A stretch of 63,993 bases of DNA, the filler included, from Licmophora abbreviata (taxonomy: Eukaryota): NCBI GenBank assembly GCA_900291995.1. It is 9 parts of 9 records of this genome, joined end to end, with 100 filler letters (N's around TTAATTAATTAA, not from the genome) between each part and the next. Parts side by side here need not be neighbours in the genome. Positions count along the whole stretch, not along the records: positions 28,417 to 41,178 come from OLMU01005534.1; 8 more parts are not named here. One strand, 5' to 3'. The position numbers and the translations under genes were made by a program. The notes below the pieces were generated by a model that saw only the letters and a program-made list of their open reading frames with translations, was not told where the DNA came from and searched no databases. Shown in pieces: positions 39,241 through 39,725 of this stretch (position 1 is the first letter of the stretch; the number at the start of each line of letters is the position of its first letter).

Positions 39241-39725
39241 TTACCATAATGATTCAGGTCTTTTAACAGGCACTCTTGTTTTATATAAAAATTTAATCGT
39301 TATGTAAGTAAATTGTTCTAAATTTTGATGCTCATTATTATTAAGAAACTTATTAAATTTTGATGTTTCATTAATATAAATTTCATGAATCCAGATATCA
39401 AAAAAATTCACACAAAGATTGTTATGTAAAGACAAAACCGGTGAATATATAAGTGCTAAGAGATCATCGCGTTCAGTCGTATTTGCTTTTAATGAATATA
39501 AAATATCGTCAATCGCATAATAAATATATTTATTTCGGAAACTATTTAAAATAAATTTTGCAATTGTAGATAGTTTTTTATCATATCGTATTTGAAAACT
39601 TTTCGACATCATTTGATTAGGATATTGAAGAGGTTTTCCTTCACTTCGGGTACTTAATTTTTTTTTGGAGTTACCGAAATCTCTTCTTTGCAACGGCATC
39701 TACTTTCGTATAAAATTCGGTTCAT
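39241..39725 (-). CDS. ycf88: Diatom-specific Ycf88; likely true start at 39725 with frame break in T-run 39658-39666
   Basis: Located between rps19 and rpl22 as in diatom plastids; upstream frame MNRILYESRCRCKEEISVTPKK joins KLSTRSEGKP...PESLW* if one A is added. Confidence 0.85.

Follow-up and report, generated by a model that had tools for sequence, protein, structure and literature searches.

The hairpin of the ribosomal protein uL22 lines the constriction of the exit tunnel. Duplicated ribosomal proteins have been recruited to new positions in mitoribosomes, where duplicated copies of bS18 occur, and in eukaryotes ribosomal-like proteins act as placeholders. The plastid protein Ycf88 discussed here would resemble the eukaryotic placeholders and the bS18 copies in being a duplicate that has kept its fold while its surface has changed; however, those proteins are nucleus-encoded and have known binding sites, whereas Ycf88 is encoded in the plastid. 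A different kind of elaboration is seen in NF008917 ("50S ribosomal protein L22/unknown domain fusion protein"), which combines an L22 domain with added sequence. The rpl22 of the locus studied here matches this family but Ycf88 does not, NF008917 being a true L22 with an appended domain and not a second copy.

Diatoms account for a large share of ocean photosynthesis, and ycf88 belongs to a small group of conserved plastid genes that are specific to these algae. In the available portions of the literature the family is listed only as a conserved hypothetical reading frame, and its relationship to uL22 is new here. In the full-text literature searched, we found no statement of homology between ycf88 and rpl22 and no ribosome studies of diatom plastids. 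"Rpl22+Ycf88" does appear, uncommented, among the reciprocal-BLAST connected components, mostly true paralog pairs, in the accessible part of a 2016 paper (PMC4810238). Placement of Ycf88 in the uL22 superfamily makes a "hypothetical" gene experimentally testable in plastid ribosomes and pre-ribosomes, and would provide a rare case of a ribosomal protein gene that was duplicated and re-purposed within an organelle genome.

The window, that is, the whole stretch of DNA that was analyzed, comprises 63,993 nucleotides from nine records of the Licmophora abbreviata assembly GCA_900291995.1, of which positions 28,417 to 41,178 come from OLMU01005534.1. An earlier note on this DNA had proposed that ycf88 is a divergent tandem paralog of rpl22 lacking the basic hairpin.

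The ycf88 locus and its reading frames

The window is AT-rich diatom plastid DNA (34% G+C). On the minus strand the genes are arranged in the order rpl2, rps19 (40025..39747), ycf88 (39241..39725), a spacer (39088..39240), rpl22 (39087..38741), rps3 (38711..38067), rpl16 and rpl29. Thus, ycf88 does lie directly upstream of rpl22, as the earlier note had it. The rps19 gene is located 21 nt upstream of ycf88, and the 153-nt spacer that separates ycf88 from rpl22 is long for this operon. The rps19-rps3 interval of this S10 cluster holds Ycf88 in addition to the canonical rpl22, with ycf88 as a second, additional gene; published maps show the same order, and the protein is a member of the hypothetical chloroplast RF88 family.

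Both genes are frame-broken in the record. From the ATG at 39725 ycf88 reads MNRILYESRCRCKEEISVTPKKN up to a stop, and continues in another frame after a T9 run (A9 on the coding strand; 39658..39666), so that the longest ORF is one of 152 aa (39699..39241), as against 160-162 aa in intact homologs. The canonical uL22 gene rpl22 is split at a T8 run (38873-38880) into pieces of 72 aa and 45 aa, which are matched in two frames by positions 1-63 and 64-104 of the Pfam Ribosomal_L22 profile (PF00237). At the two break sites intact diatom relatives read ...TPKKKLS... (ycf88) and ...GLDKKKLII... (rpl22). We compared the window with those contigs of public runs that show no other difference from it: an extra T is present behind 38872, in rpl22, in three contigs of run X1 and one of X2, and behind 39657, in ycf88, in one contig each of X1 and X7. 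As these otherwise identical contigs carry the extra T, the breaks are assembly errors; both ycf88 and rpl22 are intact in nature, and the breaks are homopolymer undercounts of the record. The peptide blocks quoted in the earlier note are all present in the translations, including a 32-residue L22 string that is right once the frame is repaired; however, because rpl22 breaks at the T8 run, this string is not encoded contiguously in the record, and the note had read across the breaks in both genes without saying so.

Elsewhere in the window, rps12 (T9 run 29040-29048) and secA (T8 run 54544-54551) are broken in the same manner, and a single added base would restore a long frame in each of rps12, secA, rpl22 and ycf88; the record systematically undercounts long homopolymers. 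Among 67 metagenome loci with a whole rpl22, four (L029, L045, L064 and L072) also have this gene in two frames near the same A-run, which could be due to homopolymer error or to slippage in RNA-derived assemblies. The window further contains 16 runs of 44 N, which occur in regular pairs 12 bases apart and are unlike the usual assembly gaps. The first pair is at 7344-7387 and 7400-7443, and another (41179-41222 and 41235-41278) covers the C-terminal end of rpl4 and the spacer that follows it.

A protein collection clustered at 90% contains 1457 relatives of the 152-aa ORF at E<=0.01, and the best 120 of these are 145-171 aa long and 68-89% identical to it. The few that carry a name are labeled "Uncharacterized protein" or "Hypothetical chloroplast RF88" of diatoms, and the named Ycf88 proteins, among them RF88 of Haslea nusantara and proteins of Eunotia naegelii and Asterionellopsis glacialis, are matched at E 1e-59 to 1e-78 with 68-89% identity. 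A profile search of 1.84 billion cluster representatives recovered 169 clusters at E<=0.001, 62 of them at E<=1e-30; these clusters, formed at 50% identity, conserve the family motifs and have in common the C-terminal ~120 residues, the N-terminal part being of variable length. A transcriptome collection is the source of one family member. Across 1867 locus pairs dN/dS is 0.18 for ycf88 versus 0.06 for rpl22. The former value indicates a working gene, and ycf88 genuinely codes for a protein that is under purifying selection.

Predicted fold and sequence relationship to uL22

We obtained an AlphaFold2 model of the 152-aa ORF from an alignment of 96 family sequences (mean pLDDT 87.4, with values of 96-98 over most of the core). 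It consists of a strand at residues 31-39, helices at 45-52, 59-69 and 74-95, and strands at 102-113 and 129-139, so that the region spanning residues 31-139 (39283..39609 on the minus strand) successively comprises β1, three helices, β2, a hairpin tip and β3. A Foldseek search of the PDB with this model returned, as the best 50 matches listed, exclusively entries of the ribosomal large subunit (best E 8.9e-5, probability 1.00; TM to target 0.6-0.79). The matches listed include 1bxe, the isolated "ribosomal protein L22" of Thermus thermophilus, and at least 25 of the chains were named as uL22 by a sequence search with an intact diatom L22. The tightest superposition, with an rmsd of 2.4-3.0 Å over 107 columns, is on chains from E. 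coli assembly intermediates, which fall short of the full uL22 length, whereas full chains fit more loosely (4.5-5.7 Å). We take this looser fit on full uL22 chains to mean that the difference sits in the hairpin.

In a structure comparison with VIA-align against 48,161 representative chains, 27 chains scored at Z 8.1-13.1 and the next at Z 5.1. All 27 belong to large-subunit entries, of bacteria, plastids, mitochondria, archaea or the cytosol, and the nine whose names were checked are all uL22, one of them under the name 60S ribosomal protein L17-A. As a control we modeled an intact homolog of 161 aa (P0001; pLDDT 83.2) from an alignment without the L22-like subclade of the family and without members from P0191 on, except P0192, P0198 and P0210. 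This model recovered the same 27 chains at Z 7.9-13.0, followed by the next at 5.1. Thus, the conserved ~110-residue core of Ycf88 is predicted, on the basis of these models, to have the uL22 fold with its β-α3-β2 arrangement. The model and structure search that the earlier note had proposed as a check hence came out in favor of its claim, with a uL22 topology in two independent AlphaFold2 models and large-subunit chains as the top matches of both Foldseek and VIA-align.

At the sequence level the relationship is much less apparent. The window protein shows no L22 match at E<=10 in Pfam and NCBIfam, and the family profile matches no PDB sequence at all at E<=10. When Ycf88 was compared by BLASTP with the two rpl22 pieces, one of them was matched at E 4.4 and the other not at all, and the Smith-Waterman score against an intact diatom L22 (27) was reached by 271 of 1000 shuffles. 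When the 96-sequence family alignment was compared by hhalign with L22 profiles, P was 0.065 for diatom L22 and 0.14 for diatom plus cyanobacterial L22, and as high a score came up in 14 of 150 column shuffles; the resulting alignments are collinear over 105-107 columns. PF00237 in turn matches four of the 96 family members (P0234, P0240, P0259 and P0265) collinearly, for instance with residues 35-105 on profile positions 11-80, at E 3.7e-4 to 0.16 and 12.6-21.1 bits, below the cut-off of 28. The Pfam check named in the earlier note is thus negative for the window protein itself, though a collinear match below threshold is seen in these four relatives.

A clearer signal emerged when 278 family proteins were searched, without filters, with an L22 HMM derived from 50 diatom and 56 cyanobacterial sequences. 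At p<=1e-3 this HMM detected 64 of them, seven of these at p<=1e-5 with a best value of 1.2e-9, and ordinary diatom Ycf88 proteins score at p 1e-5 to 3e-4. The corresponding controls were clean: there were no detections among reversed or among shuffled copies of the 278 proteins, and none in the real family with an rps19 HMM or an rps3 HMM. Given that hhalign and pairwise tests are weak and the HMM test is clean, the sequence signal is best described as faint but specific. Collinear but weak motif correspondences between Ycf88 and L22 pair L-S-x-x-A-K with S-P-x-K, Y-S...N-N with S-A...H-N, and I-T-I-K with H-I-T-V. In an ESM Atlas language-model look-up, which we treat as a lead only, the first look-alike with a named family was a PF00237 cluster (score 0.84).

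These results also bear on the alignment that had been made by eye. The identities counted in the earlier note are right (six in the 32-residue block, 11/52 over its three blocks, and loops of 22 versus 19 residues), and its register is the one recovered by hhalign, by the Pfam matches of the relatives and by the ends of the structural alignments; the pairwise similarity taken alone, on the other hand, does not exceed that expected by chance. The combination of findings that was to speak against homology, namely no profile match along with a fold unlike that of uL22, is not what was found. Taken together, the fold, the L22 HMM and the gene order support the proposal of a divergent tandem paralog. 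For annotators, it is relevant that an L22-aware profile recognizes ycf88 and that frame breaks at A-runs are assembly errors and not signs of pseudogenization.

Hairpin charge, terminal arms and a domain fusion

Ycf88 shares with uL22 (rplV/rpl22; PF00237, TIGR01044) the β-α3-β2 fold, the long β2-β3 hairpin and the operon, but it falls below every curated family threshold, carries an additional N-terminal arm of ~40 residues that contains a CxC motif, has a C-terminal tail of 13 residues of which the last is Trp, and shows about 3 times the non-synonymous rate of rpl22. The tip of the hairpin (residues 112-130; 39310..39366), a de-basified counterpart of the tunnel hairpin of uL22, has a median net charge of +1 in the Ycf88 family (n=96) and 0 in the window, compared with +8 in L22 (n=106). 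Over the entire core the values, from the same sets, are +2 and +12, whereas the β1-α1 segment remains comparably basic, with +5 versus +7. In the model the scaffold of the hairpin is kept, with a pair of 11-12-residue strands and, between them, a tip of 15 residues, whose pLDDT in the window protein is 72-78; the loop has 19 residues as opposed to 22 in L22. Of the strongly basic, extended hairpin that marks uL22, Ycf88 has therefore retained the length and lost the charge. The description of Ycf88 as "lacking the basic hairpin" is apt for the charge, but the hairpin itself is kept and not deleted.

The tip displays a conserved K-x-N-[KR]-F motif, whose N116 is present in 92% of the 96 sequences. 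This position belongs to the most conserved ones of the family, along with N93 (96%), E76 (95%), L81, W152, S44 and K57. The N-terminal basic arm (39610..39725) carries the motifs RC[RK]C[KN]E and EGKPLQYP and has no confident predicted fold, residues 1-39 of the P0001 model having pLDDT values of 52-72. The basic C-terminal tail (39244..39282), of the form P-x-K-K-x-E-x-L-W, adds a charge of +3, is devoid of a uL22 counterpart and ends in the conserved W152, found in 93% of the family. In counts made over mostly close relatives, RC[RK]C[KN]E was found in 156 of the 181 family proteins with an N-terminal extension of at least 15 residues, and the C-terminal Trp in 189 of 203.

Two family representatives, P0181 (348 aa) and P0182 (289 aa), show a fusion of a helix-hairpin-helix domain resembling the α-CTD of RpoA to the N-terminal side of the Ycf88 core. 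The domain is detected by PF03118 above cut-off (E 1.8e-11 and 2.2e-6) and is 48% identical to the C-terminus of the window's RpoA, and the two proteins are 63% identical to each other over 258 residues that encompass both domains. This fusion points to transcription or DNA at least as much as to the ribosome, and on account of it a transcription- or DNA-linked role of Ycf88 is kept in consideration.

Origin and possible roles of Ycf88

The position of ycf88 is constant. In 80 diatom metagenome contigs rps19 is found upstream of it in 78 and rpl22 downstream in 72, and the contigs without a visible neighbor end too early to show one. The median spacers are 12 nt between rps19 and ycf88 and 141.5 nt between ycf88 and rpl22 (n=72). 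Gene maps of Climaconeis, as far as they are given in the accessible part of the report, have the same rps19-ycf88-rpl22 order (PMC8268801). The rps19-rpl22 spacer of cyanobacteria, in comparison, has a median length of 23 nt over 78 loci, none of which contains a Ycf88-like ORF at this place. The constant order in diatoms and the empty cyanobacterial spacer fit a tandem paralog. According to the available portions of the respective genome papers, ycf88 is known from diatoms only and is missing from Leptocylindrus (PMC3971590), and it is lacking in Heterosigma (PMC2410131) and in the bolidophyte Triparma (PMC10307964). The simplest reading of this distribution would be that rpl22 was duplicated in tandem on the stem leading to diatoms, once Bolidophyceae had split off, and that the upstream copy then diverged fast. 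In a tree rooted on L22 the L22-like members of the family branch first and lie closest, at 3.2-3.7 substitutions/site against a median of 5.2, but we do not rely on this tree because of saturation at such distances.

On the whole it is very probable that ycf88, a real gene, is an old and heavily diverged duplicate of rpl22 whose product has the uL22 fold. After the tandem duplication, the upstream copy that became ycf88 would have lost most of the positive charge of its core (from +12 to +2) and nearly all of that of the tunnel hairpin (from +8 to +1), and would have gained the K-x-N-[KR]-F tip, the basic N-terminal arm with its CxC motif and the basic C-terminal tail ending in Trp. As to its role, we consider the chances to be about even that Ycf88 is tied to the ribosome, being made together with ribosomal proteins and attaching to the surface of the plastid large subunit or of its precursors through the basic β1-α1 patch and the two basic arms. 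Such a role is favored by the location among ribosomal genes with probable co-transcription, by the basic arms and by the retained basic patch, whereas the loss of core charge argues against an embedding in rRNA like that of uL22. In this scheme the constriction of the exit tunnel would be lined by the product of the intact and highly conserved rpl22, and not by Ycf88.

It is conceivable, albeit tentative, that Ycf88 is more specifically a diatom-specific, plastid-encoded ribosome protein that arose from a uL22 duplicate, either as a fixed 50S subunit or as a stand-in for uL22 on precursors. If so, its uncharged hairpin with the K-x-N-[KR]-F tip would constitute an exit-side or assembly feature not known from the ribosomes studied so far, and the fusion to an RpoA α-CTD-like domain would, in one lineage, physically link Ycf88 to the plastid RNA polymerase. 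Taken by itself, the proposal of a stoichiometric extra subunit occupying a new site on the mature plastid 50S of diatoms is possible but not probable: the gene lies in the middle of a ribosomal gene cluster with a median spacer of 12 nt after rps19, is retained across diatoms according to the part of the source available (PMC3971590), and encodes basic arms of the kind that ribosomal proteins use, but the charge of the core is near neutral and the non-synonymous rate about 3 times that of rpl22. We regard as unlikely a role as an assembly placeholder or competitor, in which Ycf88 would sit on 50S precursors at the surface site of uL22, stay out of the tunnel and eventually give way to uL22 itself; while the globular uL22 fold, the preserved basic β1-α1 patch and a hairpin that, being uncharged, the tunnel would not retain accord with it, the charge needed for the same rRNA site is mostly gone (core +2 vs +12), and uL22 is an early assembly protein.

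A departure from the ribosome altogether, with Ycf88 acting as a free nucleic-acid-binding or transcription-linked plastid factor, appears somewhat improbable, though less so than the exchange with uL22; the loss of tunnel-hairpin charge and the conserved α-CTD-like fusion in the two family representatives are compatible with it, but the fusion was observed in two clusters only, on short contigs, and the gene holds a constant position inside a ribosomal operon. That the uL22-like fold is due to convergence or is a modeling artifact, ycf88 being unrelated to rpl22, seems very unlikely. Indeed, the hhalign and pairwise statistics are not significant and both fold models are predictions; yet the two models agree, 27 large-subunit chains stand about 3 Z units or more above all else, the L22 HMM signal is specific in the face of four clean controls, and ycf88 adjoins rpl22. 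Most improbable of all is that ycf88 is a functionless duplicate in decay, as its broken frame in the window might suggest, for the break is an assembly error, dN/dS is 0.18, and 169 clusters at 50% identity conserve its motifs.

The ycf88-rpl22 spacer varies both in length, from 77 to 196 nt among 19 diatom loci, and in sequence. Promoter-like sites in the interval 38600-40200 are at chance level (12 vs 9.7 +/- 3.1), and an Rfam search gave no match near any gathering score. The last 45-50 nt before the ATG of rpl22 (39088-39135 in the window) are conserved among diatoms, with the consensus ...ATTGAAT.TTA..TATTAAAAATAATAATTTATG, and may represent an internal promoter or a translation-initiation element.

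With regard to the wider distribution of these genes, a search of a viral contig collection for relatives of the L22-like Ycf88 subclade yielded none. A contig of 4082 bases (L081) assigned to a metagenome-assembled genome of Flavobacteriaceae carries an rpl22 sharing 93% identity with that of diatoms, and is probably a plastid contig that was binned by mistake.
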